Positions 3,001-58,147 of a stretch of DNA of 64,000 bases are shown here, piece by piece. The DNA comes from Candidatus Omnitrophota bacterium (lineage in GTDB: Bacteria; Omnitrophota; Gorgyraeia; Zapsychrales; JANLHA01), in the NCBI GenBank assembly GCA_038222225.1, contig JBBRHV010000006.1:1626-65625 (forward strand), read 5' to 3'. Numbering within the stretch: position 1 is the stretch's first letter; each line of letters begins with the position of its first letter. Position numbers and translations under genes: made by a program. The notes beneath the pieces were generated by a model. It did not search any database, was not told the origin of the DNA, and saw only the letters and a list, made by a program, of their open reading frames with translations.

Positions 3001-6000
3001 TTCTTCGAGGAGATATTGTGGCAGCCGCGTATCTAGGTGGGCGTCTGATAGTTCATGCGGGAATTTTACCTTTTATTACCATGGATTTGATAAAGACATT
3101 ACGCCCAGGATTTTTGACTGTCGTTGCCCATCGGTCAGGAAAGTTCGTAAAGGATCTTACCGCGGTTGAAGTTGCCATCGAATTGAATAAAACACATAGC
3201 GTTCTTTCTGCTGACTCTATCGTGAATGAATTCAATCGGAGATTGCGGTTGGCGGTTGAGAAAGGCGATTATTCTGACGTTATTTTCCAGAGAGGGAACG
3301 CTCATTTTGGCGAGAACAAAAGGCCTGGAGAGTCGGGATATATACCCGGAGGCATATTCTGGGCAGACTATGAAAACGAATTGCGGCTGGTTGACCCGCG
3401 TGCGCTTATAGCGCAGATCGGAGGACATAGGGAGGGGAATGCGCTCCGTTGGACAAAGGGAGCCAGGGCTGTGAACGTCAATCTTTGTTATAAAGAGGGA
3501 TTTGGACGCAGCTCCGGAGTCGCTGTGTTTGATGGACAAAACTGGAAAGCTGTTTATTTTGATGGCCGGCCCATGCAAATTATTCCTGCTGTTATGGAGC
3601 GTGCTGTAAAACGACAGACAACAAATTCGGCAGCAGGTCAAGGCGGAACCAACGCGGCTGTTCTTGAGGGTGCGCCTTTTGAAGAACCGGAAACGGGTCG
3701 GATGAGCAGGCGAAGCATGCTGAAAATGCTGGCGCTGGCAGGAGCAAGCTTGCCGTTCATGACAACGACTGCTTTTGCTGATGAACCGACGGTTGATGAA
3801 GTTTTGACGGAACTTTTGAGCACTCAAACAGCGCATGGCCTCATTAAGAGTTTCAAGGGCACAACCGATACCTTCATGCAGAATCAGGCCGTGACCTATG
3901 ATCAGGCAGCCGCCGGGATCGCAGCTCTTGCGGCCGGAAGGACGGCGGAAGCGGTCAGGATTTTTAATTTCTTTTATAACCAGCATAATGGAGGAGATCC
4001 TGTCTGGAACGGGTTTGTGAATATGTATGATGCGACCCGCGGGGTCAAGGGCAACGAGCGCACGATCCACACAGGCCCGAACATCTGGATGGCGATGTTC
4101 AGCCTTCATCTTTATATGGCAAGCAGCGGTCAACAGGCCACGAAGGCCTTGACCCTTGCCAAAGCGCTCATGCAGTGGGCCAGGGGTTTGAATCATCGCG
4201 ATGGAGCGGTTGCCCTTGGACCGGTCCCCAATAATAATATTTTCTCAACAGAACATAACCTTGATTATTTCGCCTTCCTTAAAGGAATACAGTCGTTTTT
4301 GTCCGCGGCAGAAGCGGCGATCGTTCAAGCAGAAATGGACGGGGTTGGAACATGGTTAAAGACACATGCTTATGACCCGGCCAGAAGATTGTTCAAACGC
4401 GGAGCATATGAAAACCCGGTTGTCTATGCTACAGATACGTCAAGCTTTGCATTTTTATTGGGATCGCAGGTTCTGGAAGATTGGGGCATTGTTCGCTCAA
4501 CATTCATCGGCCAGTCCGATGCTGCCTATCGTGTCGGGACACGCGGTTTTGATGTGGCGAGTGTCGAGAACGCCAATTGGACCCCGCGTTCACGTTATGT
4601 CTTCAGAGAGTTTACTCTTCAGATGGCGGTAGGATTTTTGGTGATGGCTGATGATGAACACGATCGAGGCAATTTCACGCTGGAAAAAACGTATCGTGAT
4701 AAGGCTCAGCTCTATGCTTCTCAATCTGGCATAGATGGTGATTATCAATATTGTGAACAGACCGGGGTTCAGCTCTTTTATGATATTCCGAGCTGGAAAA
4801 CAATTAATGGTCAGTCGGCTTCGGTCATGGCCTGGAAGATATTTGCACTTCTCGGTTTCAACCCGTTTGGATTTGTTACAAAGGTGCGGCTGTCCGTCAG
4901 GCGTCTGGCGGCAACTGGAAATATGGAGTTGACTTTGCGCAAGGAAAGTATGGCGTCGCTCACTGCCGAGATTCTTTATTCAGATGACCTGGGAGATCAG
5001 AAAGAATGGAAGAGCGCCGGTTCAGTGGATTTGAGCGGCCTAAGGGCGGTTTGGGTCGATAACGGTTCTCAGACCACAACACATCCGTCGCAAAGCTCAA
5101 GGAGATTCTACCGAGTCTCGGCTGTAAATTCGTCTGTCCAGGGATTGGGCGCAGTCCATCAGGAGTCTAACGGTTTAGTGCCAGAGACGGTATTAATTGG
5201 GTCAAGCGCAGAGTATGGTCAAGAGTTCAAAGATGCGAATGCAGCAGTTTTGCAGGGGAAATTTGTTCAGACAGTGAAGACCAAAGGATCTGGGCTTAAT
5301 CGCTTTGACCTCGGGCGTTGGGGACGCGGGGCACTGCATTCAGTTCTTGCGCTAACACTGCTCACATCCGGTTGTGAGAAAAAAGAGGATACCCAGGGAG
5401 ATGCGTTGTCGGGAGTCGCGGTTCAGCCTGTTGATAGGAGCGCATTGGAGAACAGGATCAAGGAAGAGGTCCGGAAACTAGAGTATTCTGACAAGAACGC
5501 GGAGGATTTTGTAACGATGCTACGTCAATGGAAGAATGCTCAAGGCCAACCGGTTCTTACTGCGTGGGAGCAGAGCATTCTTAATGCCCGGAAACAATAT
5601 GAGCAGGGAGCCATGACAGCCGATCAGTTGGCCGGGATCGAAGCCGGGGTTGTTGGAGAAGTTGCGATGAGGATCGCTGAAGAATTTTCCGCGAATAATA
5701 ATGCTTTTGAATTGACCGATCTGATTGAAAAGAAACAGTCACAGTGTGTCAGCAGGTCAATGGCGGTAGCTATCGTCGGGAATGTACTTGGATTTAAGGT
5801 TGACTTTCTTGATGTTGATGCCAAGGAGATCAGGGCGATTGACGTTCCATTGGCGGAAAGAACTGTGGCGCATGCGGCCACCCTTGTACATTTGACCGGC
5901 GGGACCGTGATCATCGCCGATTCAGCGCTACGGTTTGTAAGCCGGCCGTTTTTAATGGAAGAAACCTACGCCGCAGTCGGGAACTATTGGGAACTTAAGA

Positions 6001-9000: not shown

Positions 9001-12000
9001 TCCATCCGGAAATTTGTTCGTTTAACGCCCTTGCTGAAGTTCAGCATCAATTTGGGGAGCTCACCACCATTGTTGTTGTTTATAGACGAGCCGCCGCTCT
9101 TCTTCAAAGGAAGCCGGTTTATGCCTCGCGTGAAAATGATATCATCATTCATTCCGACGGGATTATTTCTCAGGATCAGCTTATTTCGAAAATAAAAGGC
9201 CCTATCGCGCGCCTGTTGGTAACCGGCAATGAATTTGAAAGCTGTGTTGCCCGGGCTGTTTTTTCCATCAGAGAATTTATGCGGGATCAATATTCTGCCG
9301 GGTTTGTCTTGGATGTTCATTTTCCGATGGATTTGATCGTTGCCAATCGTCATGACTATCGCGATGGGGGATATCAAAAGATGATCGCGAATATAAAAGG
9401 CGGGGACTTTTTCTACAGCTATAAATTTCAAGCCCGTCGGATTGCCTATGACATCTATGATGGAACCGAACTGATCTGCCCTTGTGGGGAGGGAAGCGAA
9501 AATATTTCCAATCTTTATGTATGGCCATCTTTACAGAGCATGAAAGATGAATTAAGCCGAGGAACCGGCGGGACCAACGGGGCTGTTCTTGAATCAGGAG
9601 AGGGCGGCGCCTACAAGGAATTGATTTGTCGGTTTGACATGAAAGAAGATTATGAGGCGGATGATTGGAAGGAATCACGGGTTCTTAAGCGCGTGGCACT
9701 TATGAAACAGATCAGGTTGGGTTGGAAATATCCTCAGATGGGAGAACCGTCGGAACAATGGCTCAATGAGCTGAGAGAACTCGTTCTTCATCGTCTTTGG
9801 ACAAAGCTTCAAAAAGCACATCGTGGAGACATGTTTTTCCCTCAAGACATGGTTTCTCTCAATCGGTCGCTGAATCAGCCGTTTGTTTTTATCGTCGATG
9901 AACTTTTAAAGAACGCCCTTGATGCCCAGGCCTTGGCAGGGCAAAGCGGAAATGTCCATCTTGCGAGATCGTTGCAAGGCGGAACATTCGTGATGGCGGT
10001 TTCTGATAACGGAATCGGCGTCCGTCGCCCATTCTTAGGCTCAGAGCAGCTGGCTTGTATTGAGTCTTTGGCAGATCAGCAGAAGAGACGTAATACTCGT
10101 TTGGAAGCAAGTGATGGGGCTGGATTGATCTGGGTTCAGTATCTGGTCGCCATGCGGGGAGGTAAGCTTGAAGTCGAATCTCCCGGTCGCAATGAAGCCA
10201 GGACTACGGTTGTTGTGTCCTTGCCGGCGGATGCGTTAACGGTCATTGACAAGACGGGCTTAGGTTCTCAGACAAATGCTGCAGTCCTTCAAAAGAGAGA
10301 AGATGTCGCTACGCGGTTTATTTTTAGGTTAGCTGATCATTATGGTCTTTCTTCCACTTGTGATCCGCAGGAGATCCTTCAGGTTCTTCGTGCCAGGGGA
10401 ATCTTGAGTTCAGGGGAAGAAAGGGCGTTTGTCAGATATAGAAAAATTTTAAAACAGATGTATCCGGAGCTGAGCCTTGGGCAGGCTGAAGCACGCTGGA
10501 CGGAGGGCTACACATTTTTCGGGAATAATTCTTCTGAGGATTGGGAGCTTTCCGGACTGACGGAAGATTTTACGGTCATGGTTAAGAAACACATCGAAGG
10601 GATCCGGGCCGTTGAACACACCGATCATCCTGCGGATCAGGGCTGGTGGAAGGAAGATGGGCTGAAAATAAGAGTGATCCGGATTACGGATAGTCTTGAT
10701 TTAAAGGCGGCGTTACCGAACGAAAAAACAGAAAACCTGCCGCTGTCATCTGATGATGAAAACGGTTCACTGCACCTCTTTGAGTTTTTGTTCAAGAAGA
10801 TCTTTATTGAGCCAAAATATTTTGGCCTGGTAGCTTTCAAAGAAGGAAGGCCTGTTGGTGTATATGGGGTTTTTGTTTTAAATGATTGGAGAACGATCTC
10901 TGGGCGCGGATTATATGTCGTTCCATGGGAAAGGTATAAGAAAACAAATATCGGGTGGATGCTGGTCTCAAGGATGGCGGAATTGTTCGCGCTCAATGGC
11001 TATAAGTATCTTTATATCCCTGTGGCCAACCGTCCGTCGGCGCAGAAATTTTTTGAGAACGTGTCGGACAATACTGGACGCTTCCAGTTTTTCACAGAAA
11101 CAAAACGGAACGATGACGGAAAAATTCAAAAGGTTGCTGTGAAGCTGCAGGAAAGGTTCACTCCGGTTCAATGGGACATTGATCTTAAGCGTCAGATCGG
11201 CCAAGTCAACAGCGCGGTATTAAATACGAGCCTGTTGCAGCAGGTCCAAAATATGGAGGCAATGTTTAAAGCCTATGAATCGATTCTTAGTGACCATGGC
11301 CGACAGATACACGAGAGAGTTCGAGTGGTTTTAAGAGCAGCTTCTCAAGGCGTGATGAATGCAGAGCAGCAAAAAGAAGTTCGGGCGCTCGTGGCGTTGA
11401 TGCCTGATCCGCAGCATATTGATATTGAATCCGGCGGAGAAAAGAATTGGATCCGTTGGTTTGATTTAAGCCCGGAAAGACTGGGCGCATCTTTAGATCA
11501 AAGCATTGCCGATGGATGTGCGTGGCCGTGCCTGCATTGTGCGGCGTACAATGGCCATGCCAAAACAGTGATGGAGCCGCTTCCTGTTGTGATCGCAAAA
11601 ATTTTAAGCAGAACACAAACGGATATTATTTATCCATTCCAGTTCGATCTGATTTCTTGGCGGGATCTTTTCTTTGGAGTCGGCATTTCGGGATTAGCAG
11701 AGTTTATATCACGGTATAACCCGCAATATCAATTACGGTCATTGCCGACACGAGGTTGGGATAGCGATGATGCCTTTGTTCAGAACGAAGCCCTGCATCT
11801 TGCGCAGCTTAAAATCGCTAGTGGTATGTTCATTCTTTCATTCCATCTGTGCCATCAGCGGTATGACATCTTGCCGGCTATTGCGCAGGCGGTCAGGAAC
11901 GGAGACCGTGCAGAACTCGATGCACTGATCGATGTTTATGCAGCACGTTATGCGAATGTGATCGCTACGTTAAGTCCTGCGCTTGATCGGGTCAGCGTAT

Positions 12001-15000
12001 TTTTACCCGGAGATGTATACGCTCCCGTCTTTGAAGAGGCGACGATCCGGGCATTGAAAAAAGTGTTGAGCATCTTAAACGCTTCGCATGAAGAGATCAA
12101 GCCGCTTGTTGGTGAGATCAGTCATGGGGTCCTTGGGATCCGGGATATGAGATTTTTAAACATCGGCGGAAGGCAGATTTCGTTTATTTCTCGAACGATC
12201 CAACACGACGGCCGCGGGCGTGACTTTTTGGGACGATTGTGCATGGCTGAAAGCGGGGATTTGAACGGCAGGAAGGCGAATATGAATTTGCTTCGCATGG
12301 TCAAAGAACATGGCCGTCCGTATCCGGTTTCTGTCCTGTTTGCCTCTGGACGAACGATTGTCCAAACGCCGCAAGTCAACAGCGCGGTGCTTTTGACCGA
12401 ACCGCTGAGAAAAATGTTCCGCGCATTGAAACCGTGGCTGGTTATCGGCGCCGTTGCTGCCTGGGTGGGTTTTGAAAGAATGAATGCGAATCTCTTTTCT
12501 GGCCCTGAAGGGGGCGCGCATGAGAAATGGATCTTTCTCGACCTTGTTTTAGCCGCCGGTGTTATTGAAGAAATTCAATACAGGTTTGGCGTGTACAGGC
12601 ATGTCTTGAGGCCTTATTTCGGCGTTGTGCTGTCAGTCATCATCAGTTCTTTAGTTTTTGTGGCGGTCCATCTGATCTTTGCGGATGGGACCTTGATCGG
12701 TTTAATATATGTCCTGTTGTTTGGTGTAATTTCTGCCTTGATTTATGAAACCAGCGGCAAGCTGCGCTACGCTATTCTTCTGCACATGATCTCGAACTTG
12801 ATTTGGATCGGCATGAGCGCCGGTCCGTTTGCATATTTTATATTCACGGTCTCGCTTATGGCGCTGATGAAATTAAGCTTTGTTCTATTTATCTTCTATC
12901 ATACGGTCATCGCTGGCGTTAATGAGAGAGGAATCAAGGCCTTTGAACGTTTTGGAAAAACTGATTCGATTGATGAATGGTTAGGTCAAAAAGTTATCAG
13001 ACCGGCGGTGGCTGTGATTAAAAGCCGATGGGCAAAACTTGGCATGAATAAAATGTGGCGAGCAAAAAGCCCGGATGGAAAAGAACATCGCCGCATATAT
13101 GCTTTGGCATTCACAATCAGTGGATTGATCCTGACCTTGCAGTTTGCCGGAGACAGGATGTTCAGATTGTTCTATCCGGTCTCGCCAAGACCTTTGATCA
13201 CTCAAGAAGAGATGCGACAGAACATTCAGCGGGAGAGGGATAAGTTTGAAGCAGCAAAACGTGCCGCCCTCGCACAGACGCCAGGACTCACCACCAATGA
13301 TATTTTTGGTGTGATGTATTCTTACAAAGCGGATCTTTCATTGATCCGGGTTGTTTTATTCCATGACGGTCGCGCATACAGCGTGGAGGTGACATCGTCA
13401 GGTGAGACAATTGTCGATCCGGTAGCGTTATCATGCTACGAGGGCATTCTTACGCTGTTATTTTCCGACGGGCATATGGACAGACATCGTGAACTTCCTT
13501 TAAACGAACGGACTTGGAATGAAGTTGAAGCTTGGAAAAATAGATTGCCTCAAAAACCTGCACCTAAAGTACGGTCGAAACAGGGCGCGCAAAATTCATA
13601 TCATAAATTCAATACAGCGAGTTTGTACAAAGGGGTCAACAGCGCGGTGTTGTTGGGTTACTCGGATAAAGAAGCGTGGAACAAAGAGTCCGGGTTTTTG
13701 CTGGATACATTTTTTACATTTGAGCAGTATGTCGCGGCGGCTTTATATGATCCGGCCTGGGGATTTTATGGCAGTGGGAAGATCAAACTAGGGTTTGATT
13801 TCGGAACCATGCCGATCGCGCTGTCGCCGTTTTTCGGAGAGAAGGTCGCTGAGCGTGTGTACGAGATGTATATCGGCATGCTGAAAGCCGGTACCATCAG
13901 GCCGGATGAGCCGTTTTACATGATCGAGTTTGGGGCGGGAACCGGCGTGTTGGCAAGGGACGTACTGGCATTCTTTAGAGAACAAGCTAAACGCGGACGG
14001 GTTTATAAACGATTCTATGACAATTTGCATTATGTGATCAGCGACCGATCTAGCCCGCTGCTGGAAAAACAAAAGCAGAAGAATGCGGAGTTCTTGGAGG
14101 AAGGCAAGATCCAGTTTGTGATCGGCGATGCTCAAGAGCTTGAAACATTCTTGGAGAAAGAGCGTCCGATCAAGGGAGTTGTATTCTCCAATGAGCTTTT
14201 GGATGCCTTCCCGTCCCATAAAGTTTACATGGATGAACAGGGAGTGGCACATGCCATGGTCTCGATACCGGCTCTTGTCGATCAGCACAGTCCTGATCTC
14301 AGGCCTGGCAGCAGAGGCCGCCTATCGTCAACGATCAGCTTGTTGGCGCAAGTCGGAAAGGTGCTTAAGGCCCACGGGCTTTCGCTTGAAACATTAACTC
14401 AAAAAAGCCGTGAGTTCGCAGGGCGGTCGAATGTAGTCAAACAGATGGTGGATGATGGGGCCGTTGTTTTAAGTCGGGAGGATTTCTGCCGTATCCAGGA
14501 AATTTTCTCCGGTGAGAAAGTCAGTATGTATCGCGAGCTTATCCACAGGGTTATGGCGTTCTCTGAGATGACGGTTCCCGCGGCGCTGGTGCCCGGTTTA
14601 AAGGAATATTTAGATTTCCACAAAGATGAAATGAGGACGGCCCTTCAGGGAGAGTCAGGATGCGCAGTTGTCTCTTCCGGGTGGCTTTCGTTTGCAAAGC
14701 ATGTTTCCGGTTTGATCGATCAGGGATATGTCTTTACGATCGATTATGGAGAGACTACGGCGACATTGTTGAGCGCCAGGCGCAGAGAGAATTTTCCGAT
14801 TTCGATCTATCATCGACGTTTGGGAAGAGAGCGCAATCCTTATCTTCACCCTGGTGATGTGGACATATCGGTTGCGCCGGATTTCACGGTCTTTGCCCAG
14901 GCGGGGCTTGTTCATGGCTTGGTTCCGGTTTATCACGGGGAGCTCCGGTTCTTGCAGGCAGATTCAACCGAAAGGATTGACTCCGCGCAAACCGCTTCAC

Positions 15001-21000: not shown

Positions 21001-24000
21001 CGACAAGCGCCAGTGTTCTAAATGGAGAAAGCCAGGAAAGTGCGGACTTTGGCGAGGATCAAGATTTATCTCAGATTCTGTTGATGGCCCAAAGGGACCT
21101 CCGGTCTGGGAACCTTTCGCGGTTTGCCGGGATCAATGCTGAAAATCATAAAGAGCGATTATCAGGATTTATTTCTGAGAGCATTCTTCAGAATGAGCGT
21201 TTTGCGCAGGTCATCGGCCTCTTGTCATTTATTTCTGATAATCAGGCTAGGTCTGCTTATGGCTATTCGCCGATTTGTGAACATATGAGTCAGGCGGTTG
21301 CGGTTGAGACGGCAATAAAAGAATTCCAGGTATTAGGCTTGGCGGGCTGGAAGGTCGATTCGAGAGTTTTGACCGGTGTCAAGGATTGGTGGCCCATCGG
21401 TTCTCATCATTCAGCCGCGATCGTTGTGATCGGGGATATTCGTTTCTTTGTCGATATGACATTTCCTGTTCTCATCGAAAGCAATTCAGATTATGCGGAT
21501 TTAAGCAAGCCTCATGGGCTTGTGATGATCCCTGAACAAGTTTTGATCGAACATCCTTCGTTCCTTCAGCTTTATCAGACAGGGATCGCCAGATCCATGG
21601 ATTGCGGATTTTCTGAAATCAAGGGCGTCCAAAGGGAGGATTTAAAATTGACCATGCGGCTCCTTTCTTTAGACGAATTTTCTGATGTGATCGAAACTAT
21701 TCCCGATGATTTTGTCGCTGAACGCTACTCCAAAGAAGAGAGAGCTGCTTTACCAGCCCAAATTGAGAGCCAGGCACTCAAGATCTATTGTTTCTATCTT
21801 CCTCGGGCGGTTTCTCAGGGAGTCCTGGCAAAAGGAGTCGGCATGGTTTTTGTCCGCCAGGAGGGAACGGGCCGTCGCGAGATCGATTTCTTTTTCTTGC
21901 GATGCAGCCTCACTTATATGGGATTTGGGCCGGAAATGATTAGGCGCGTTTTGAGAGAACTTCGCAAAGGAACATCAGGCGTGAAGGAAGTTGGAATAAG
22001 CTCCGGGTTCTTGAAGATGCTTCCGGAAGACAACGGGTCTTCAAAACGGGCAAGGCTTTCGAGAAAGTTCTTTTGCTATCTGGGATTTGAAGGTGATCCG
22101 TTGACGTTGCGTTTGCAAACTTCCGAGGAAAAAAACAAGGTCCCCTCCGCAGCGACAAATGCTTCGGTCATTTTGGATGGAAAAACCTTGAGCGAACAGA
22201 AACCGCTAACGGTTGAAGAATCGTGGCAGCTATTCGCCAGAAAGTTGGAGAAGGGGGCGCGTACGAATAGTCATTCTGGATTGGAAGACAATCCGGTCAT
22301 GTCGCATTTTAACGAGACGAAAAAAAGGAACGCGAATAATTCCTTTGAAACAAATGCGTCCATTCTTCTGGAATGGAGATTGAGGAAAATCATGCAGCCG
22401 TTTTTTGAAGGCGGATATTACGTCGAGAAGCAGGGGGATTCACGTCATGAAATGTTTCTGCGCGTGTGCCATCCGGAGCCAGAGAGACAGGGCGTGTTTC
22501 GTGGTGAAGACAAGACCCGCGCTTTCTGGGTTCAAGCGAGGGAAGATGAGTTTGAGGTCAACTGGGTCTTTCCGGATCTTCCGCCTGGCAAAGGTCTGGG
22601 GCGTGCTTTCATGGCCAGTGCACTTTTATTGCAGGATGGTTTTTGTGGAGGAAAGAAAAAGTTTATTATTGAAGACACAAAAATCTGGTTGTGCCGCAGC
22701 TTCAGAAAGCTTCCCGGATTCGGGATTTTTTATTGGGCGAAAACGTTTCAGTTTGTTGCGTTGCTGTTTTGGTTGGCGGGCCGCCGGGATGTTCTGAAAT
22801 ACAGGCTGACCGGGCGCGTACCCGAGGTTTCAGCGAAATTTAAAGCCTGGCTGCATGAAAGAAATGAACACAACAAGGGCAAGGCTGTAGGGACAGAGCT
22901 TCGAACGACCAATGCCGCGGTGTTGGGCCGTTGGGTGCATGCGTTCGAAGAGGGGTGGGGGCGTGCGGCGAAAACAACCTTGAGCAGGGTTGCTGATGAA
23001 TCGCTTGCATGGAAAAGAAAAATTAATGAGTGGGTCTCTTGGCTGAAAATTTGCCTGCACGTGACGGACCGCAGTGATCGAGTGGTTGCGGCACAGCAAC
23101 AGGATATCCAGATTATTGGAAACAATTTCGGTACGGAGCAACACCCAGCCCGCGTCGGATCGGTAGTTCATATGTCCAGTTCGCATGAACAGGACCCGGG
23201 ACTACCGGTCTGGCGCACATATTTCGAAGGAAAACTCAGCGGCGGGGTAAACGCGGCTGTGCTTGTCCCTGATCGCATGGGCAAGACGTCGGCGGACTAT
23301 TTTGATGAACTTGTCGCGCAGTTTAATGATCAAAACAATGAAGTTTGGCAGAGATTTCGTGCTTCTGTTGAAGCGAACCCCGATCAGTACGATTCAGTTT
23401 GGTTGAAAGTTTTGAAGCAGGCGCGTGCATTAGAGGTTGAAACACAGAAGCAGGTTCAAGAACCCGTGAAGATATTTTTATCGCTGGATTCCGTCTTGAT
23501 CGTTCCTGAAGATGGAAGCATGACCGGTCCTTTATTGCCGTTGGCGCCGGATTCGGAAGCAACGCATCATTTGCCTGCCCTGCCTGTGGTGCCGGAAGCA
23601 ATTCTTTTATTCATTTTCGTTTTGAGCCGCAAAAGACAAGGCCGCGGGGGGAAAGGCAGGGAGTACAGTTTAGCTGCATTCGTTGAGAGCATGCAGAGCC
23701 GATGGAAGGCCGTGAAACGTGCTGGTTTTACGGGCAAAGATTTCTTTGGAAAACGCCATGTCTATAATCTCACGTTGCGGTCTTCGTGTCGGAATTTTGC
23801 GTCAACAGGGTTGAGTGATCCGTCCGTAAAGTTTGCAGGAGAAAGTAACGCATCAGTTCTGAAGGATGCAAAGAATCGTGAGAAGCGTGACAGTTTCAGA
23901 AGTGGACGGCGGTCTCTTTCTGTCGTGTTCACCGTTCTTGGAGTTGCGATCGTTTTGTTTATCGCGCAGACAGCTTTGGCAGGATTGGAAAGGGCGGCCT

Positions 24001-27000
24001 TGGGGTCGGTTTTTGGAAAAACTTTTGAACTGTGGAAACAGTTCCATGGTCCAGACGTGGTTATTTCCATCTTGGCAACTGCAGTGATTTGGACTGTTTA
24101 TCGGGTCCTTGTTTCATTCAGGGCCATGCGGGCCCGGCTGGGTGAGCCGGCATTATTTTCAGGTTGGCCTGGAATTGCGCGTGTGATCATCGCAAAGGTT
24201 TTAAAGCGGATTGTCTATCCGCACAATAAAAATGCGAAATGCGCATCGGCGGCGGGTTTCCGTTCCTTTGCCCGGAGTTCTCGCCGGAAAGAGGTCCGTG
24301 AGGCCCTGATGCGCGCTTCAGCTCTGCTGCGCGAGTCCCAGCGGCCTCTTCTGGTTAAACACAATGATATAAGGAACGTCCTGTTTTTATTATTCCCGGG
24401 CCACATTCCAGCGGCGGTACGTTTGAAGGGCGAGATTATCTGGTCGCCATGGTGTCCGAGCAAGGAGGCCTTGATTTCACATTTGACCAGCGTGATGGGG
24501 ATTCGTCAGGAAGAGGCGCAGCTCACAGCCGATCTGGTTGAGATCTGCCTTTCCCAAGAGGAAAATGTCTGGCCTCATTGGCAGGCTGCCCGCCGGTATT
24601 TCAAGTCCATCCGTTTCAGGGTTCAGCAGGAAACTTGGCGGCTCATTGGACGTTCTTCAGATCGGCAATTAAAGGTTTACCGCAAGGCTGTCGAAGACCT
24701 CGTCCTTTTTAGGCTTGAGCCGGCCGGCGGGAAATCGGCTCCCATAGTATTTTCGAAGTTCCGGGAGAGGCTGGTTAAGTTCTTTGGTGAGCGGCCCGAA
24801 ACTGCGTATATCGCAGGCTTCGATGGTGAACTGATCGAATGGCTCTATGCCATATACGATGGCGGACTTGGAGAAACAGCGTTTATCCAGGAGGTGGTTC
24901 GCCTCATGGATGTTGCTAATAATGTGGATCATGCGATGTCCGACCATGTTGAGGGCGCATTGAAGGATGCCGGAATTGAGAACCTGAAACCAATGTCCGT
25001 TGTGTTTGCTTTTGATCCGCACAGCGGGACTGCGGCAGATATTCTCAACGGAAAACTCAGAATTAATTATTATCAGTACATGTCGAGTGTGGCTAAGGTA
25101 GAGGAATTGCTGGAGACCCTTCTGTATGATATTTACTTCCATATTATTTATGCGGATCAAATGCGCTCGAATGAATTTTGTGATCAGGCTTCGCGCTCTG
25201 AAGCGCCTGGCGTGGTCAAGGGAAGTTATTTGCGAGGAGAATCGTATCCGGTTTCAAGTTTGGAACAGGGGGACCGTATTCGTCTGCATGAACGATTGGC
25301 CAAGCTGACCGCAGAAAAGATCGCCGCACAATTGGTGTTTGGGAAGGATTCTCAGATCGCCGGTTTGAGGCGGCGCTTTGTGGCGACGTGTGCTAAGTTC
25401 AAGTCCGGAGCGTCAGTCGCAGAATTAGCACTGGAAGTCGCTTCGCGAAGAGCCGTCCTCCAGGTCGAAGGACATGCCGGAACCTTGACAGAATCCGCCC
25501 GACAGCTAACGGAGTATTTGAAGGCTGCGCTATCGGCTGATTTGCCGGAACAGAAGCAGGTTATGGATTATATTGAGATTCAGGCACAAGCCATGGCGGT
25601 ATTTTTTGAGAAGATTGAACTGACCTCCGATTTTCGCGTCAGGCTTATGTCCACAGCGGGCTTTTTTGGGGAAGGCGCGCATGATCGTCACGGCATAGCT
25701 GAGGTCGGCATGAATGGGATTGGGATCATTCCTGTCAATCGGCTTTCTTTTGATTTCTTATTTGAAATAAAGGCCCGCGTTGCGGCTGCGCTGACCGGAT
25801 TCCGTTACCGCAAGATGGTCAATGATCAGCAGGCTGTAGTTCATGGTCAGGCTAATTTGCTGTTGTCCAATCCGATGGCGCGCGAGCTTTTGATCAAGAC
25901 GTTCCGTTTAAACGGAAGCCGGGATCCAGAAAAACGCGCGGATGATGTCCTGGCCGGGCAGCATGATCTTTCCCGTTTTGAGGAGGAATTGAAGGCAATG
26001 CTGAGTGCGTTGGGATCCCGTTATGTGAAGGTTGGATGGGATGAACAGGGAAGAGTGATCTGTCCTTTGCTTGATCCAAGTCAGATGAAAGAGGAGATCC
26101 TTAAAACGCGCTTGCGCGGCAACGTGATCGTTTTTGCGATCCGCCCAACGGTCGGCGGCCGCGCTTTATTCTCGACCTGCCTTCCGGATGACGATGATAA
26201 TTTTATTTATTATCATCTTCGCGGAGCTATAGAATTTGATGAACAGGGAGAATGTAAGGGGATCATTCTCCAGGGAGGGGAACCGCGCGATCCTGACTTG
26301 TTCATGAAATATCATGGATATTTCGGCGTATATTCAGAAAAAGACCTGATGGCGATCCTGCGCAATGACATGATCCTGGCAGCCCGCCGGTTCATGAAGA
26401 GCGGCCTGTTTGATCCGCATACGGAGGTGGGGATTTTATATATTGATCAAAACGGAGTTGATCAGTCGGAGAAGGTCCGGCTTGTCGACCTTGCCCGTGA
26501 TGTTCTGTACCGTCAGCACGATGCTCCCCAGCAGAATCACCCGAGCTATGTTCCTCAGACCCGCATACTTGCCTTAGGAGAAATTCTGCTTTGGTACAAT
26601 TATTTCCATTTGAAAAACAGACTTGGGTTATTGCTGGATTCAGAAGCGAGAGAGTATCTCAGCGCCGTCAGATCGCTCCCTTGTTATGAGAGCCTTGTGC
26701 GTCATTTTCCGACGGTGGAAATTGCTGAGGTTGACGCGCTGCCCCTGGTGGACTCCTCAGGGGAAAAGACCGGTACCAGGGTCGGAGATTTAAGGATGTT
26801 CGGTTCATGGAAGCCGTTCCTGACAGCAGAAGATGCGCATTCGAATAAGACAATGTCTTGGGAACAGCGAGTCATGACGAATGCATCGGTCAACAGCGGA
26901 ACAGAAGACGATGAAGGACCTTTGAGGGAATCATTGATCAGGAAAGAGGCGGGTGAAAGTATAGCGGCGGAAGCTTGGTACATGGGACAGGAAAACGGGA

Positions 27001-30000
27001 AATATCGCGACTTTGGCAGTTATTTGGCAACCCATCCATGGGTGTATGATCTGAAAAAAGGAAAAGCCGACAGCGGGGCCAATTCATCCGTACTGGGACG
27101 CAGAGTTGAGCTAAAGGATTTAGTTTTTCAATTTGCTTTTGAGATGGAACGCCGCGGCCGCGTGATCCGCACCCGGGCAGGAAGGATCCTTGATATTGAA
27201 GAAGACACTGAACTTAAGCGTTCCAGGGTTATAAAAGAGGAGGGGATGAGCACGTACCTCTTGGCTGACCGTTATGAGAGAGGATCGTCCTTGATGGCCT
27301 GGGTTGCGCAGGGAGAGATCATTGGTTACGGCTCTTATGTTCTGTCAGAGAACGATTCAGCGTGGATCGGATTCTGCATTTTTGAAGAGTATCGTGGCCG
27401 TGGGTTTGGCAGCCGGGCCTATTCAAAGTTGATCAGCGTTACACAAAACATTGGCCTAAGGCCAGTTGTGCAGTGGAGATATCCGCCTATTACTGTTTTA
27501 AACAAGAAGCTTTATCCAGGTGCGCGCTGGGATCTTTTGCCGTTTTTGTTGAGAAAGGGATTCCGTCCGTGGTTTGCTGATATTTCAGAAGAACACATTG
27601 AGCGTATTGCCAGAGGGGAACATGTCGGTTCCCGTATTGTTCACCGGTTGGTCCAACAGCCGTTGGTCTTGACGGACCACGCGAATTCCGCTGTTTTGAC
27701 TTCAACAACAGTTGGTCACGAACCGTTCGCTTACCGTGTGTGGGTCAAAACACCTCCGGTGTTAGCCGAAGGTAAATTTGCGGAATTGAGTGTAAAGGGT
27801 GGCTTATTGAGCGCGGCCAGATGCGCCGAGCTTAACGCCGAGTTGGAAGGAGCGAAGAAAAAAATTCTAGCCGAAGGATTCTTTGATGAAAAAGATTTTG
27901 ATCTGGAAGTCCGCATTCTCCGACGTGCCTACCATAGTGAATCCTTCACGCGACAAGTTAAAAAGACAATTCTTTTCCTTGATGAGCGGACATTCCAACA
28001 TTCGTTTGCTCTTTATCTTGCCGTTAAACATGCCATAACAGATCTCTGGGTGGATAAAAATGCGGAAACGCTGATCGCGCATGATCAGTTCGGACATCTG
28101 AAAGATTATATTTCGGAATCTTCCAAAGGAAGATCTTTTAATCCGGCCTGGCGTGAGATTTTCACGATCTTAAACGTTAATGTTTTTGAGTTTTTGCTTT
28201 TGCGTGATCAAGCTCTCAAGAAAGCTGAAGAATTCATTCGTTCGATCGGAAAAGAGGCGGCCGTGCACGGGCTGTTTTGGCTTTATGTATTGATGCTGTC
28301 TGATAGAGAAAAAAAGACGCCCATAGAATGGATCGGCGTGGTTTTCGCCCTTGTCTCTTACAGCCCTGCTGTTTATCCGGCTATCCGAGCACGGGCGCAT
28401 GCTTTTGGTATGTATGAGAATCCGCAGAGGGCACAAGCTTTAGCGCGGAGTGTGGAAGGGGTTTTTGCAACCAAGGACTTGCAGATCGGGGCACAGGCTC
28501 AAGCCAGGCTTCAGGAGTTGCGCGGCTATCAAAAGCAAAGCGAGATTGACCGTTTGGCGGAAAGCATGAGAGCTCTGGTTTCTGCAGTGCAGCGCTTGAC
28601 GGATGAGGGATACAGGCCAGAACAGTTGACGTTGGCGTTTTTCAAAGACGTTCCTATTAATCCGGTTGATCGTAAATCGTGGTTTAAGCCGTTTAAAAAA
28701 TGTCAATGGGATGATCCGTTGCAGAGGAATTTGAGTCTCGGGCGGACATCGCGCGTGAGGAAATCTCCGGGATCTAACAGTGCGGTGCTTAATGGTTTTG
28801 AGCCGTCCGGGTCCTCTATAGGGCATCCGGGCCCAGCTGCTTCCAATAAGGTTTGGCTGATCGTTGCGTTTGTGCTGCCCATCGTTCATGGACTGAGCAT
28901 TGTGCTGGCGAAATATATTCTGGGCGTTCAGCTGGTGCATCCGATTGGGTATTTGTTTGCGTTTTTTGCTTGGACAAATATCTGGATGTTTTTGTTCCGG
29001 ATCGCACAGAGCTTCAGCAACGGCCAGCGTAATGAACAAACGCCATGGAGCTTGTTGCGCCATTGGAGTTTTACTCATCGGGAATGGACGGTGCTTGAGC
29101 AGTCGACCCGGGCAGAAAAGTGGATGATCCGCGTGAACGCGTTATTCAGCCAGTTTATTCTCACGCTGTTATTTATTTGGTCACTGAAAAGCGGCCTTTT
29201 AACAGCGGTTTATTCCATTTTGCAGACCTCCGGCTTTGTGTTCGGCCTGTTTCTTGGAGCGCTTGTTCTGGGAAAAATTCTAAATATTCACGCGGAAAAA
29301 TTACGGTTCCGTCATTTCGCCGGCATTGGTTTAGCTGTGACCGGGGTTGTGTGGGCTTTGGCAAGTGTGGGCATAAGTCAGGGCCGCGGGATCCGGGGCC
29401 TAATTGAAATGGTCATCAGCGGCTTAACCAGTTCGGGAGCAGGGTATGCCATCGGGTTGGCCGGGCTGGTCGGCTTTCAGGCCCTTCTGCAGAAGATCAT
29501 TATCAGTGTGATGAATAAGGGCAAGCCGTACCGGCAGAAACAATTGCCTTATGTTATGACAAAATACGGATACCGGTTTGGGATCACGACAGCGTTGTTA
29601 ACGCTTCTCGGATTAGCCATCATTTCTCCTGCCGTGGCTCCGTCGGTCGCTGAGATTGCAGCGTGTTTTTTCAATCCGTATTTGATCGCCTTGGCGGGAA
29701 TTTTTCCAATGATATGGATCACGACCTATACCTTGTACCGCAAACTTCCTTTATTGCAGCTGACCTTTTTCCGTGCAACCATTCCTTTCTGGGTCATGCT
29801 CGGGTCATTTGCCGCAATGCATACAGCGGTGACGTTCAGCCAGGTCATATCCGGGCTTTTTGTTCTATCGGCGGCGGTTGTGGCAGCGACGGGCACTCAG
29901 AATGGAAACAATCAAGACGCGGTGCCGGATTTTCAAGCAGAGAACGGCCAGGACAAAAGAGAAGTTGTCGTACGCTGCCATTCTTGGTTTAAGCCATGGG

Positions 30001-33000
30001 AAAAAAGGAAGAACCGGATCCATTTGCGTCCGGCCAGTAGAATTGTTTATGTTGCGAAGTACATCTGGGATCAATTGAACATTCGTATGATCGTTGAAAA
30101 GGAAGGAGATCAACAACAGGTGGATGCCCGAAGTATCAACGGCCTTGCACGTCTGGCAATCTTTGACGGGGAAAAAATTTCAATTCGAACAGAGGGCTTG
30201 GCAGATAGGCAGATCAAAGGCAAAGCGGTTGAACTTTTTGCTAGGATTTTGAGAGACCCGGGGGTTCTTCAGCACAAAACGATTTGGGACATTTTTTATT
30301 TCTTTGATGAAGGGCGGGGGATAGATCAATTGTCCTTGCGTAAATATAAGCGTGCGGTTGATTTGATCAAGCTGGATGCGGCGGAGTCGGACCGACCTGA
30401 TAGGGCGCAAGTCAATTCCTCAGTTCTATTCGGAGCATCTCTGGCGCAGATCGATGCCTCTATCGTTGGTGATGTGGTCGGAATGATCATGTTTGCTTTG
30501 GGGTCGGCGGTTACCTGCATTGCGGCCCTGTTGATATGGCTGGTTAGAACACAGCGGTTCCGTATTCATGGGTTCTGGGTTAGGAGCTATACACCGGAGG
30601 AGATGAAAATTCGCCGGAGCGTTCATGCGCGGATGATCGATTTTTGCATCGGAAGCAAGCATTCTCAGAGAATGGCAGCTCAACGCATGGCGGGCCGTTT
30701 TACGCATTCGGCACGCAAATCATACAGATATCTTGTTGATATCTATGGAAGAGAAAAAAGCAAAACGGAATTTTTAAAATTTTTGAGAGAAACAGAAAAG
30801 GATCGACTGGTTACTTTTTTAGTTTTCTTAGAAAAGAAGAAGATGCGGTTGATCGTCGCTCCGCGATTTGTGGAAGGCGGAAAAGAATTCCGTCATCTGG
30901 ACATGCAGCATGGGTTCGCTTTGGAGGGCGTTCTAAAAAATTATGTTTACGGATATTTTGAAGGGATTGACCCAACGGACGATCAAGGAAAGATCGTGCT
31001 GATGTATTTGGCGGGGGAGGAGGGGTTCAAACAGCTACAAGAGTTGGCATTTTTATTTATTACAGGCGGAATATCCATAGTGAAGCCAGTCGAGCTCTTT
31101 ATGGATTCGGGAACGATAGGTGAGATCAAGACTGTGCGTGATCTTTTGCGTGTTGAGTATTTCTATCAGATAAAAAAGCAGAAGCAAAAAGAGGCGTTAG
31201 AAAAACGCATTGCCGAGGATAGGGCCGCGCAAGACGGGACCAACGCGGCGGTTTTAGAGAACGGCACAGCGGATCATGAACAGGACGGTGGCGAAACAAA
31301 TGCCGCGGTGCTGGATTCCGAAAACGAAAGCAAAGGGGAATTTTTGGCCGGGACCCAGCAGGGGATTCGGCTTGGGCTTTTGACACTTGAGGAGGCGCGT
31401 CTTTGGGAGAGGGCGGCAAAGATTGTTGATGCTCCTGTCGGCATGGAGATAGAATTCAGTCATCCGGAAATTGCGACATTAGGTGATGATGAGTATGATC
31501 TTCCCTATTATATTAGCGAACATTATTCGGATCCTCATTTGGAATTTAATCTTGAGCCATCTTGGAATCTTGGCATTCAAAGATATTTGGTAAGGCATAT
31601 TTACCGCAGTATGGGGTTGTCTGAGGATGATGTGATCTCGGTCCAGTTAAACTGCGGTATCCGCAAGAAAGATTATGAGGGGCTTTCTCAAGCTTCCCGC
31701 GGATTATTTTTATCTATGGCGCATTATTTAATGCTTGCGGTTACGATCGTTTATGCATCAAATCAAAGGATCTTATCAAAGAAATCAGAAAAGGTGGCCG
31801 AAAAACGGGATTGCGCTGAACCGCTTGATGGAGAACCCTACATTCGGATCGAATACGGTTTTCTTGATACGATCGATGAGGGGTGGCTGGTTCTCTGGAT
31901 CTTGCATCAGGTTATTTGGAAAACTGCAAGGTTCAGCGACGATCAAAAAATTTCCGGCAAACTCATTCGTGAAGAGGAGCAGTTGCTAATCAAGATCGGG
32001 CAGGACATGGTTATTCAATTGCATGAACGTCTTCCAGGTATTAGAGGATTAAGTGCGAATGATATATTTGACCTGTCGGATGCTCGGACGTGGTTTAGGT
32101 TGGTTCCGTGGCGCCAGGAAAATCCTGCTACGGTGAAGGCCATTGACAATCTTCTCCAGAAAACTGTGCTTCAAGTTTTGTCCACTTTAGGAGGGTCAAA
32201 CCATACGCCAGAGAAGGAAGTGCCGGTTTGGATTTTACCGGCTGGAAATCGGGAGACATTTTTAAGATGGTTTGGTAATCGGGAGCAGGCGATTGCTCAT
32301 ATTCCTGAGCCTACAGGTGGACAGGACGAGGTAAGGGATGGCGGAGTTAATTCTGCCGTTTTGGATCAGAGAAACATTGTTGGTGTTGAAGTGCACTGTC
32401 CGGCAGGATCAGGATATTGGCTGAGAGATATTCTTTATGAAGGGATCCCGGTTCAAGGCGGGCTGGTGATCCGGTATTATGATCAGTCGCGGTGGTCGTC
32501 AGGAATTGCAGGGATACGGACGGTTCGCAGTGATCATGGATTTTTTACAGAAGTGGATATGTTAAGAATATTAAATGGAGAGGTCCCGACAGACATTTTC
32601 TACGTGGGGGCTTTTCATTTGGGATGTGTTCGGCATGCGTTTGAAAGCGCGCTTCAAATTCAAAAGACAGGCCTGTGGAACGGGTCTCAAGCAAATCATC
32701 ATTTCATTTCAAACCGCATTGCCTGTGATTGTGATGATTTCGATATTCGTGTCAGTGATGCTTTGCCGAGGCTGAATCTGAGGACTGCAACGCCGTTTGC
32801 CTGGCGCAGAAATTGGAGTGTCAAAGCAGCGGTTATTCGGGGAGATGAGGTTGTAAGTAACACACGATTTATCGATCAGCTTCAAGCGAGGCTTTATTAT
32901 TGGAACGATGTGCCGGAATTTAAGGAATGGATAAGCCGTGGGATTCAGCAGACAAACGCAGCGGTTTTGAACCAGAGAATGTTTGAGATCGTGGATACAC

Positions 33001-36000: not shown

Positions 36001-39000
36001 CAGCGCAAGACAAGGGTCTTCTGAACAATGAGGACCTGAGGCGCGCAGCCGTGGCCATGGAAGGTTTGCCTGGCATTATTCTGGATGAGGGGTCGTATAT
36101 GCAAAGCGATTTAAAGAAAGCAAGCGAGTTTGATTTTGTGATGGCTGACCGTATGGTTGAAGAATTCCGGCTGAGATTGGGGAATCCCGGGGTAACCCTG
36201 GTGGCGGAATCGTTAAATTGTGACGAGGAGGATCCAGACCATCAGACGGGGTTGATCATCGCTGCTGTGATGGACCATCCTGCCATTACCAGGGTGCTGG
36301 ATTATAATTCGATGAGTCCTTTTGTAAGACATGGTGGATTCTTGATCACCGACGGACAACAGAGAAATTCGGTGCCGTTATTTGACGGTGTGCAGGAGAT
36401 TGTGTTGGTCGGCGGGAATTTAAGCGCGTGTCTTAAGACGCAGCTTTTTATATGGTTATTCGCCTTGCGGCATGAGTTTGAACAGGGGGTTGTATCGGGT
36501 AACTGGGTCTTTCATATTCCTTCGGGCGCAGTGTTTGATGTTAACGAACAGATGACGGGTAATGAATTTTTAAGGAGAACGGATGGCGTGCGGAAAACAT
36601 TTTTAAAAGAGTTTTCCATTTTAAACGAAGGGTTTGCGGCAGATCGTTTCGGGTTGATTCGCGTGTATAGACAAGAAAAGTTTTCAGTGACTTTAAGGCT
36701 GTGGAAAAATTTTGAAGATTTTATGAGGCGATTGGATTCTGTGAAGAGGATGGCCCGCTTGGGTACGTCTAACTCCTCCGTATTGAAGCCGATGGCCGTT
36801 GGGATTGGCGTGCATGACGGAAGCCACATGAGTGAGGCGGCGGCGAAACGTACATGGGCGGCGCTTGAAAACGGAGAGCGCGTGAAGTTTGCCGATATAA
36901 GGGATCATGTTTTACCGGGGATGATTGATCCGATTGCTCAAAGCCTTTTGCGGGATGAAAGGGTTTGGATCTTTGTTCCGGATGTTATGGCGGGAGAGCG
37001 CGGTCCGCCGGTGCTGTGGTTTGATTCTTCTGAATATTTTGTTGTTTCAGCTATTTTAAATCAGCAAATCATTATTCCTGTCGGGCTTTTGGACCATCCT
37101 TCCCTGATCGAAATTTTGCGTTTTGAAATGGTGAATGTTATTTCTGGTGAAGAAGACGTCGCGCAGGGAGCTCTTTTGGCACAAAGTGTTTTGCGGTCTG
37201 TTCTCATGGTGATCAATAAGGGAAAAGAAGTAAAAAATAAGTCGAAAAAAGACCATGCTGCTGAAGAGATCAATTCTGCCGTTTTGAGCGGAAAGGACAA
37301 AGAATACCGTGTGATTTTTGAAGGCAACAAAACAACGATCCGTGGTGAAGAGGGATATTGGGTCCATGTTCAAGTTTTGATTGATATGGGGGAGATTCCC
37401 GCCGAAGGCAAGACGATTCGCAACGGGGACCGCTGGCAGCAGGAAACGTCCGAAGAAGTCTTTGGACAGGGAAAAATTATTGCGGTTCAGGGTGATTATT
37501 TAAAGGCCGAATTTGGGACCAAAGGAATGCGGCAGTTCAATTGGAGGGTGGCGGATATTGAGATTTTTGTTTCATTGAAGAGCCTTTTGTTTAAAAAAAT
37601 CCGCGACTCCGAGGAGGAAAAAAATAGGGCTTTTGCCGAAATTCAGAGGGGCGAGCTAGCCGGGTTGATAGACTCGGCGCTGCGTTGCGGGTATCGATTG
37701 CAGGATTTAGCCCGGGAAGCGGTTATATCCCCCAGTTATATAACAGGTATCGTGAAGGGGAGGATGCAGCCATCGACAGACGTTATCCGTAGGCTTGTTG
37801 CTGCAACAAAGAAGGCCATGGCCCATCCAAAAATGATTGGGCGAAAAAAGGGCGGGATGTTGATTAGCGCAGAAGAACGCCAAAGGATAGTAGCTCGTCT
37901 GCAAGCGCTTATTCAAAGAGGGTTCTTGCCTGCCCGGATCGCGGAAGAAGCGAAAATTTCTTTAGCACTTCTTTCACGCGTGCTTAATAACGGATGGGGG
38001 TTGGGTACCCATGCTCATGAAAAAGTGATGAGTGCTGTTGAGAAGATGGAGAAACAAAAACCGAATCTTGATCAGATAAGGGATGTCTTAGTCAAGATTT
38101 TAAACAGCGGTTATTCATTTGTTGAAGTGGGAGAAGTGGTCGGAGTGAGTGACATAAAACTGAGGCGCATCTACAAAGGAGAAACCGGTTTTGCTGTTGA
38201 CGAAAAAGAACTGTTAAATAAACTTCGGATTTTGAGCGGGCAGCCACATCCGAATGCTGTTTTAGGGAAAGCATTGTACCGGTTAGCCGTCCTTTTGGGT
38301 TCGCAAAAACGTGTGGCACAAATCTGCGCAGAGAACACGTTTGTCATCAGCAAACTCATCCGCGGTTCAGGCGGGGTTAAAGCCGATAAACGGAAAAATT
38401 TATACGCCTGCATTGTGCGCGCGTTACCAAAGATCGCAACGTGTTTGACTCTGGAATTGTCCGGTAAAGGGCTTGGTTCTTTAGCTGGGTCCATGGCAGA
38501 GGTCTTGCGCAACAGATCAGGCGCCGTGCGCTTGTTTACCGATGTGGACTATTTGACCTTTAACGCAGCCCGGATCCACGAGTTCCTGGCGGTTGAGAAT
38601 GTTCTACTTGAGCTGACGCAAAACATTTTCCTCAAGAAAGCGCGCGAATGGATCGATGAACAAGGTGTACATGTCATTTATCATGTTGTCCCTCAAGATC
38701 AGGCTGACTTAAATGGAAGAAACAAACCGTTAACGTTATCGAAGGTCCAGGGTGAACGTGATTGGATTGGCGCGGAGTTTTTTGACGAGCGTTCAGGACA
38801 TGCCGTCAATTCCTCTGTTTTGAATGCCGTTCACTCAGATATGTGGGTCAGGGTGAAGAATACAGTCCCGGCTCTGGAGCAGATGAAGCAGATGTTTGAT
38901 GCAGATCAAGATTTGCTCACAGAAGAAGGAGTGAGAGTGGAGAGAGACGTCCGCGACACGTTGATGGCGTTGCGCTCTTCTTTGAGAAACGAATGGGCTT

Positions 39001-57968: not shown

Positions 57969-57999
57969 AAGACAGCGTAAAGGGAAGCGGCAGGTGATA

Positions 58000-58130
58000 G
58001 AAATACAATTGAAATATAATGGAAATACATAGAAATAAGAAATTCGGAAAAAGAGAAAGCTTAATCAGAGCAAGTAATCGTTAGGGTTTTTTATTTCAAT
58101 GTATGTCTATATTTTTCCATGTATTTCAAT
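58000..58130. repeat. Phased GAAATA direct repeats and inverted ATTGAAATA copies in the aldolase-eda intergenic region
   Basis: GAAATA at 58000, 58011, 58022, 58032 (10-11 nt spacing), GAAATT at 58039. ATTGAAATA at 58008-58016, with its reverse complement TATTTCAAT at 58092-58100 and 58122-58130. Confidence 0.5.
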
Positions 58131-58147
58131 CTGTTTTTAATTTGAGT

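Follow-up and report, generated by a model that had tools for sequence, protein, structure and literature searches.

The stretch of DNA analysed here (64,000 nucleotides (nt) of contig JBBRHV010000006.1 from a Candidatus Omnitrophota bacterium, assembly GCA_038222225.1, positions 1,626 to 65,625; hereafter the window) carries a giant open reading frame (ORF) on its forward strand, on which all features described below also lie. The ORF (nt 78-56891) is listed with 18,937 amino acids (aa) and comprises about 55 unrelated modules in one frame, which are joined by a short repeated junction peptide. One of these modules is present in two copies, one internal and the other forming the last module of the gene, and a junction interrupts the internal copy only. 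The frame is open from nt 3, with no stop codon between nt 3 and nt 78. The 25 codons that precede the annotated GTG match the N-terminal end and the first transmembrane (TM) helix of stand-alone rhomboids (aligned residues encoded by nt 9-77), whose start methionine aligns at about nt 6-9 of the window. The gene therefore begins before the window and encodes more than 18,937 aa.

Between the junctions, about 18 distinct Pfam families were recognised, none of which dominates: Rhomboid, APH, Metallophos, TPR, Pkinase, two HATPase_c, Rce1-like/CPBP, Methyltransf_28, several GNATs, HPr, PALP, AlaDH, HTH, SEC-C and Methyltransf_24. Many modules had no Pfam family, and extra Pfam scans of ten of these unannotated modules gave no further protease. 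TM-like hydrophobic segments were found by a crude hydropathy scan in about 20 modules interspersed along the ORF, in which cytoplasmic enzymes, exported modules and multi-pass membrane modules alternate.

A regular-expression census of the giant ORF returned about 54 junctions of the form x-[T/V/A/I]-N-[A/S]-[A/S]-V-L. The Asn is present in 51 of 54, the Val in 47 of 54 and the Leu in 42 of 54. The flanks are polar and rich in Gly and Ser (Gly at position -1 in 19 and at -2 in 10 of the 54), and residues +6 to +13 after the motif are mainly N, G, S, D or E. The strict form N[AS][AS]VL occurs 33 times in the ORF versus 0.13 expected from shuffles (at most 2 across 300 shuffles), and none was found in the remaining five reading frames or in the six neighbouring genes. 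The peptide GGVNAAVLVP, which a first-pass annotation of this DNA had called a canonical junction, fits the consensus at all positions and is rightly so called. The junction codons vary synonymously, including TCN and AGC for Ser and CTN and TTR for Leu, which places the constraint on the peptide and not on DNA or RNA, and which ruled out a DNA-level explanation of the junction. Across 11 orthologous junctions of the window and its relative RA.bin146 (described below), the motif is 85% identical and the flanks are 30% identical. This comparison indicates that the junction motif is under purifying selection. Methionine is not enriched after canonical junctions (16 observed within the first 15 residues versus 17.8 expected), and thus the modules cannot be translated separately.

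The two copies of the duplicated module were aligned over nt 22926-23861 (internal) and nt 56085-56888 (terminal). BLASTP gave an E value of 6e-55 with 108 of 228 residues identical (47%), which bears out the earlier proposal that the two regions are paralogous across the position of the junction. The identity of 60-65% that accompanied this proposal was too high; it amounts to 47-50% overall and to 59% in a core of 134 aa. At the DNA level the copies are 59.6% identical, with third codon positions at 43% and thus near saturation, indicating that the duplication is old. Both copies contain the blocks SWLKI.L.VTD.SDR, RVGSVVH.SSSH.QDP, VWRTYFEGKLS, DRMGKTSADYFDE and VWLKVL, and the homology reaches about 90 nt further 5' than nt 23034 and nt 56187, where it had previously been taken to begin. 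The module, about 230-300 aa long, starts with an N-terminal unit, which is followed by a four-helix unit, a Pro-rich/hydrophobic/basic element and a tail.

The internal copy is opened by the canonical junction TNAAVL (nt 22908-22925) and closed by SNASVL (nt 23844-23861), the orthologous junction of RA.bin146 being TNASVL. Its N-terminal unit (WLKI..VTDRSDR..RVGSVVHMSSSHEQD; nt 23028-23195), for which the predicted structure is of low confidence, is followed by helix 1 of the four-helix unit (PVWRTYFEGKL; nt 23205-23237), by the derived junction GGVNAAVLVP (nt 23241-23270, core VNAAVL at nt 23247-23264) within the helix 1-helix 2 loop (nt 23238-23288), and by helices 2-4 (SADYFDE..W..FR..VWLKVL; nt 23289-23426). 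A Pro-rich and short hydrophobic segment with the look of a sorting signal (LPALPVVPEAILLFIFVLS, then RKRQGRG; nt 23571-23627) precedes the tail unit (REYSLAAF..NFASTGLSD; nt 23658-23825), which is present in RA.bin146 and missing from the terminal copies. In the related protein P0009, the counterpart of the tail unit lies within its own junction-bounded module. The terminal module is opened by TNAAVL (nt 56067-56084), which is kept in the orthologues, and contains the N-terminal unit (nt 56181-56348), the four-helix unit (nt 56358-56561) and a Pro-rich and short hydrophobic segment (LSAFPVMSGSIFLFISILV, then YPGRRR; nt 56703-56759) that is likewise kept in the orthologues. A segment of about 19-20 aa (e.g. 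GTAEICEFLTVHFGISSHRR) that stands after the GRRR cluster in three orthologous loci (L002, L003 and L008) is missing from the window's terminal copy at about nt 56770-56780.

The only gap in the core alignment was one of six residues between YFEGKLS and DRMGKTSADYF, placed there by BLASTP and by MAFFT at both the DNA and the protein level. At this position the internal copy reads S-GGVNAAVLVP-DRMGK and the terminal copy S-MAEA-DRMGK (MAEA at nt 56394-56405, the junction-free state), a net difference of 18 nt. The indel and its coordinates had therefore been given exactly in the first-pass annotation, and its description of the junction as a discrete cassette between conserved blocks agrees with an 18-nt in-frame indel. 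The pair can also serve, as had been suggested, as an internal control, since the same domain is available with and without the junction.

The structure of the duplicated domain was predicted with AlphaFold2. In a construct of the terminal copy, residues 55-130 formed four helices with a predicted local distance difference test score (pLDDT) of 92-95, in the order helix 1 (GVWRTYFEGKL), an 11-residue loop (SMAEADRMGKT; nt 56391-56423) and three more helices ending in VWLKVL. The prediction for the whole internal copy was poor (pLDDT 47); the same helices were visible in it, and the junction residues had a pLDDT below 50. In these models, the new junction is predicted to interrupt the loop that links helices 1 and 2 of a single compact unit, and is thus intradomain and not located between former genes. 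It counts against this picture that the terminal-copy run drew on a shallow alignment of 13 sequences. The duplicated domain had no match in Pfam or NCBIfam, and the best Foldseek hit against the Protein Data Bank had an E value of 3.1. It may be a membrane-anchoring module. P0004 (307 aa) contains two four-helix units in tandem; a DQAML junction stands before the first and QDPTKP before the second. The final helix of one repeat also aligns with the 'WLK' helix at the start of the N-terminal unit, a hint that the domain has its origin in a repeat. The RVGSVVH block of the N-terminal unit (nt 23151-23180 and nt 56304-56333) was also considered as the G|SVVV autoproteolysis motif of SEA domains; it lies in a region predicted with low confidence and without a predicted beta-hairpin, and the resemblance is probably coincidental.

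Relatives of the module were sought in order to polarise insertion versus loss, as the first-pass annotation had advised. A HMMER scan with a two-copy profile over 1.84 billion representatives matched 11 proteins, all of them fragments of similar junction-punctuated ORFs; a word-indexed protein search with the terminal module returned nothing. P0001 and P0003 end as the ORF of the window does and are followed by HMGL-like and aldolase genes, which makes them positional orthologues of the terminal copy. The corresponding synteny anchors in the window are the HMGL-like and KDPG-aldolase genes directly downstream of the giant ORF (nt 57018-58777). P0002 matches window modules 18 to 24 in order and is thus an orthologue of the internal region. 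A genome scan with patterns widened by P0002 placed its sequence in the metagenome-assembled genome Candidatus Omnitrophota bacterium RA.bin146 (L004), the sole match among GTDB representatives, in which the 22 kb examined are all open in one frame and carry the same junction motif. In addition, ERZ795055 NODE-178 (L005 and L008), a metagenome contig of the RA.bin146 species, contains both the internal and the terminal copy.

The HMGL-like gene of the window (nt 57018-57968) is 94% identical to that of L008 (positions 10969-11925), and the giant-gene modules of the window and RA.bin146 (L004) are 45-82% identical and differ in content. Judged by these identities, the window and RA.bin146 are close relatives, and the giant gene evolves much faster than its neighbourhood. 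Module order is collinear between the two, but entire modules are found in one and missing from the other, the breakpoints falling at junctions. Window modules 7, 10-14, 17, 19-20 and 25 are unmatched in the compared stretch of RA.bin146, which in turn has additional modules, including a GNAT module immediately ahead of the internal copy.

At the site of the indel, the terminal copy reads MAEA in the window and in L002/L007, MADA in L003 and ITAA (AITAADRMGK) in L006/L008, the HMGL-like and aldolase genes following in all of these orthologues. The internal copy of RA.bin146 (L004/L005/P0002) reads VAGA (SVAGADLMGK), and only the internal copy of the window has GGVNAAVLVP. The six-residue insertion is accordingly missing from 13 of 14 family members, namely four terminal copies, one internal orthologue and eight distant homologues. 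These alignments indicate that the junction was very probably gained as an 18-nt net insertion on the lineage of the window, after its split from the congener RA.bin146, and not lost from the terminal copy, as a single gain fits all sequences and the alternative would require both a gain and a later, precise loss restoring a four-residue loop. Two points tell against the late gain. The internal copy is represented by a single independent orthologue, and a gain before the split with a precise loss in RA.bin146 is not strictly excluded. Moreover, the 134-aa core does not group the two internal copies in a clean clade; that they are orthologous is deduced from synteny and from the tail they share. 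The new junction has no close donor among the junctions of the window: the nearest differs at 9 of 30 nt, which is within the ordinary spread, and recent copying from another junction in the window was rejected for want of a close DNA match.

Six distant homologues (P0004, P0005, P0007, P0008, P0010 and P0011; L009 and L010) are punctuated by D-x-A-M-L instead (variants DSAML, DQAML, DFAML, DHAML and DVAML), a 'dialect' in which the Asp aligns with the junction Asn. In P0011, the P-loop of a guanylate kinase begins directly after such a motif. In P0004 copy 1, P0007, P0008, P0010 and P0011, D-x-A-M-L stands 13 residues upstream of the window's site in the same domain, where it replaces the QDPNLG of the window's clade with unchanged length (e.g. 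SSAKEDFAMLVWREWGLKK), and in P0005 (TDKAMLADG) it lies in the same loop as the new junction of the window (YLTDKAMLADGVVDAAGKT). This recurrence of junctions in a 25-residue region of the aligned sequences suggests, but does not prove, that there is a functional advantage in splitting off the N-terminal unit from the helical one. As P0008 also contains a DEAML within helix 2, where a DE is conserved, some matches to this shorter motif may be fortuitous.

The junction peptide is probably an endoproteolytic processing signal that is read at the protein level in the cytoplasm, the product of the giant gene being a polyprotein. This reading is based on the conservation of the motif, on the gain and loss of whole modules bounded by junctions and on the presence of twin-arginine (Tat) signals directly after junctions. 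Moreover, complete enzyme domains lie between the junctions without internal starts, and the peptide at their boundaries is a selected one, as in polyproteins. Module 3 begins 11 residues after a junction with a Tat signal-peptide-like segment (GRMSRRSMLKMLALAGASLPFMTTTAFADEP; nt 3696-3788), assigned from the S/T-R-R-x-F-L-K consensus, in which GRMSRRSMLKMLALAGASLPFMTTTAFA-DEP constitutes a textbook twin-arginine signal (SRRSMLK...AFA). In P0009, a junction is followed at once by the Tat/lipoprotein signal VSRRNFIQSIAVAGAAILASGC (VSRRNFIQ...LASGC). Tat-type signals work at or near a free N-terminus, and their location inside a 19,000-aa chain amid cytoplasmic enzymes is hard to explain without release, which supports processing. 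If so, the giant product would be cut into its modules at the junctions. The internal copy would be cut into two chains, one with the N-terminal unit and helix 1 and the other with helices 2-4, the anchor and the tail, and the terminal copy would stay uncut as one piece.

Several observations weigh against processing, the case for which has been drawn wholly from sequence. No protease of matching specificity was identified, and Pfam scans of the ORF revealed no C39 or S8 domain. The new junction might also be a poor substrate, with only two to three loop residues separating it from helix 1, as opposed to the long polar linkers elsewhere. The rhomboid module is a weak candidate for the protease. 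This intramembrane serine protease forms module 1 (nt 3-740; PF01694, E 1e-24), which ends in the first junction (TNAAVL, nt 723-740). It shares the H..N, GxS and AHLGG motifs with stand-alone rhomboids, including the catalytic Ser and His, and from these residues appears to be active; its best NCBIfam match, under the cut-off, was rhombosortase. The active sites of bacterial rhomboids open to the periplasm and their preferred sites adjoin a TM helix. Few modules of the ORF begin with a TM segment, which then lies 16-50 residues downstream of the junction, and the topology of the rhomboid is unfavourable for cytoplasmic linkers. The Rce1-like/CPBP glutamic intramembrane protease domain in module 11 (nt 12528-12803; PF02517, E 6.6e-13), whose best NCBIfam matches were the sorting proteases MrtJ/MrtS, also under their cut-offs, is a more plausible candidate, as is a trans-acting enzyme. 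Pfam scans detected no other peptidase family in the ORF.

The strongest competitor of processing, although unlikely, is that the junction is never cut and serves the whole protein as a conserved linker or as a docking motif for a chaperone, a scaffold or the membrane surface, the junction of the internal copy being an extra motif in a tolerant loop. Published Omnitrophota giants have been treated as single membrane-anchored chains with no cleavage sites reported, the interspersed TM modules could anchor one long chain, and the small hydrophobic core A-A-V-L in polar flanks resembles many short linear motifs. However, the Tat and Tat/lipoprotein signals directly after junctions make little sense in mid-chain, cytoplasmic, exported and multi-pass membrane modules alternate, and a docking motif would have no obvious reason to mark all boundaries and to survive module swaps.

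A neutral origin of the internal junction, as the scar of a module that was inserted and then recombined out or as a junction that was copied in, would be compatible with cleavage in general and appears quite improbable. Whole modules do come and go at junctions, as the GNAT module beside the internal copy of RA.bin146 illustrates, and tandem junctions only 19-71 aa apart are found elsewhere in the ORF (modules 4, 20, 25, 30 and 50). On the other hand, no donor was found, the nearest window junction differing at 9 of 30 nt, and no genome is known that has a module between helices 1 and 2; and the independent origin of other-dialect junctions in the same 25-residue region suggests selection.

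Cleavage of the junction without a protease, either by self-cleavage at Asn (asparagine-lyase chemistry) or by 2A-like ribosomal skipping, is very improbable. The Asn is nearly invariant, and the Asp that the other dialect has in its place can, like Asn, cyclise. Known asparagine-lyase sites need a folded domain, whereas here six to seven conserved residues, of low pLDDT in the model, lie in disordered polar linkers, and no conserved folded domain surrounds the Asn, so that the junctions do not belong with asparagine peptide lyases or intein-type self-cleavage. Nor do they belong to the 2A-like class: the consensus x[TVAI]N[AS][AS]VL is unlike D(V/I)ExNPGP and has no Pro at the skip site and no Gly-Pro. 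Finally, the earlier suggestion that the Met of MAEA is a relic start codon, the two blocks having been separate genes and the terminal copy having lost the junction, is scarcely credible: Met is present at the indel in three of four terminal orthologues, but other members have Ile or Val in this column, which is just a hydrophobic position of the loop, the insertion is missing from nearly the whole family including the internal orthologue, the blocks belong to a single four-helix unit, and junctions are not followed by an excess of Met.

Other parts of the giant ORF also show unusual junctions or signals. Very short 'modules' of 19-71 aa between two junctions lie at nt 5142-5252, 22173-22367, 26895-27095, 31257-31313 and 52401-52613, the clearest being ENGTADHEQDGGE flanked by two TNAAVL motifs; they could be spacer peptides or leftovers of deleted modules. 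A lipoprotein-like signal (ALHSVLALTLLTSGC; nt 5313-5375) occurs shortly after a junction deep inside the ORF. A second paralogue family is formed by module 10 (nt 11223-12392) and module 42 (nt 43401-44612), which are full-length relatives (E 3e-30) and carry a CxxxCxxC motif (CAWPCLHC and CTEPCLHC, respectively) with the look of a radical-SAM cluster site. Module 38 (nt 38823-39215) matches only the first 80-100 residues of these two modules and then ends in the junction VGVNSSIF; modules 10/42 versus 38 are thus a second natural experiment on where junctions sit. The genes downstream of the giant ORF are ordinary bacterial ones (HMGL-like, KDPG aldolase, radical SAM, MnmA and MutL).

Papers on giant bacterial proteins leave open whether these are one chain or are cut (West-Roberts 2023; PMC11573180), and the junctions described here supply candidate cut sites. 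The paralogue pair together with the junction-free RA.bin146 orthologue provides near-isogenic test substrates. If cleavage is true, a cellular organism would use the polyprotein strategy on a scale so far known only from viruses, the annotation of a giant ORF would have to list many proteins, membrane-topology models would need reinterpretation, and gene fusion and operon replacement could be studied as evolutionary processes in giant ORFs. A broader proposition, about as likely as not, is that in some Omnitrophota dozens of unrelated proteins, whether cytoplasmic, membrane-bound or exported, are made as a virus-style polyprotein with a short cleavage code that has lineage dialects (x-T/V-N-A/S-A/S-V-L in the window, D-x-A-M-L in a distant lineage), in which sites are born de novo, even in a folded domain, and modules are gained and lost like cassettes. 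If cleavage is not true, the junction is still an unexplained and strongly selected linker element.

In Omnitrophota, giant ORFs have been amply documented, among them a described class of 'multi-enzyme metabolic cluster' giants (Nielsen & Lui 2026, bioRxiv 10.64898/2026.06.07.730766; West-Roberts et al. 2023; Seymour et al. 2023, PMC10066038). The ORF of the window shares the features of this class, namely the phylum, a single ORF of at least 10,000 aa (here at least 18,937), many different Pfam families (HATPase_c, GNAT and methyltransferase among them), interspersed TM helices and fast evolution. It differs from the published giants in its recurring inter-module peptide and in the presence of a rhomboid and a CPBP domain instead of C39 and S8, the proteases discussed for other Omnitrophota giants (West-Roberts et al. 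2023, bioRxiv 10.1101/2023.11.21.568195). In the latter work cleavage was suggested and the cleavage points were stated to be unknown, and a 2024 survey (PMC11573180) named missing protease motifs as an obstacle. The words cleavage, junction, linker and motif do not occur in the text of Nielsen & Lui 2026, and the literature searched, of which the coverage was limited so that a prior description is not fully excluded, made no mention of a recurring junction peptide or of the motif strings; literature searches on polyproteins or cleavage in Omnitrophota giants likewise returned nothing. New here are the polarity of the gain, the intradomain loop context, the taxon and the evidence for junctions as selected module boundaries.

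The Pro-rich/hydrophobic/basic element of the duplicated module (nt 23571-23640 and nt 56703-56775) was present in both copies and in all orthologues (PVVPEAILLFIFVLSRKRQ; P[VL][ML][PS]GS...GRRR). In its composition (PVVPEAILLFIFVLSRKRQ and PVMSGSIFLFISILVYPGRRR) it is similar to the signals of sorting systems such as rhombosortase/GlyGly-CTERM, MrtJ/MrtS with JDVT-/Synerg-CTERM, and exosortase with PEP-CTERM and VPEID-CTERM. Unlike these signals, it is not located at the extreme C-terminus. The rhomboid and CPBP modules of the ORF score best against rhombosortase and MrtJ/MrtS, respectively, but far under the family cut-offs, and hidden Markov models of CTERM signals (NCBIfam) had no match in the giant ORF. 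This similarity concerns the tail of the module and not the junction. In C39 processing of double-glycine leaders, a system that does not fit the junctions, the conserved residues would be expected upstream of the Gly; here they lie downstream, and PF03412 had no match.

The rhomboid recognition motif reportedly consists of a small P1 residue with hydrophobic P4 and P2' residues beside a TM helix (Strisovsky et al. 2009). If the junction were cut as N-[A/S/G]|[A/S]-[V/I]-L, its P1 would be small and its P2' hydrophobic, and a rhomboid is encoded as module 1. In contrast to rhomboid substrates, however, the junction P4 is not hydrophobic, mostly polar sequence follows and the linkers adjoin cytoplasmic enzymes; as the junctions are not at or near the start of a TM helix, they are not canonical rhomboid substrates.

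Parallels are also found in the polyproteins of viruses, with the sites of picornavirus 3C, potyvirus NIa and nidovirus Mpro, which share with the giant ORF the many units per ORF, the boundary peptide, the presence of a protease in the ORF and the turnover of sites. The giant ORF is distinguished from them by its cellular, bacterial host, by a length three to six times that of typical replicases, by an unrelated motif and by modules that are ordinary metabolic, signalling and membrane proteins, and its cutting is a prediction from the sequence.

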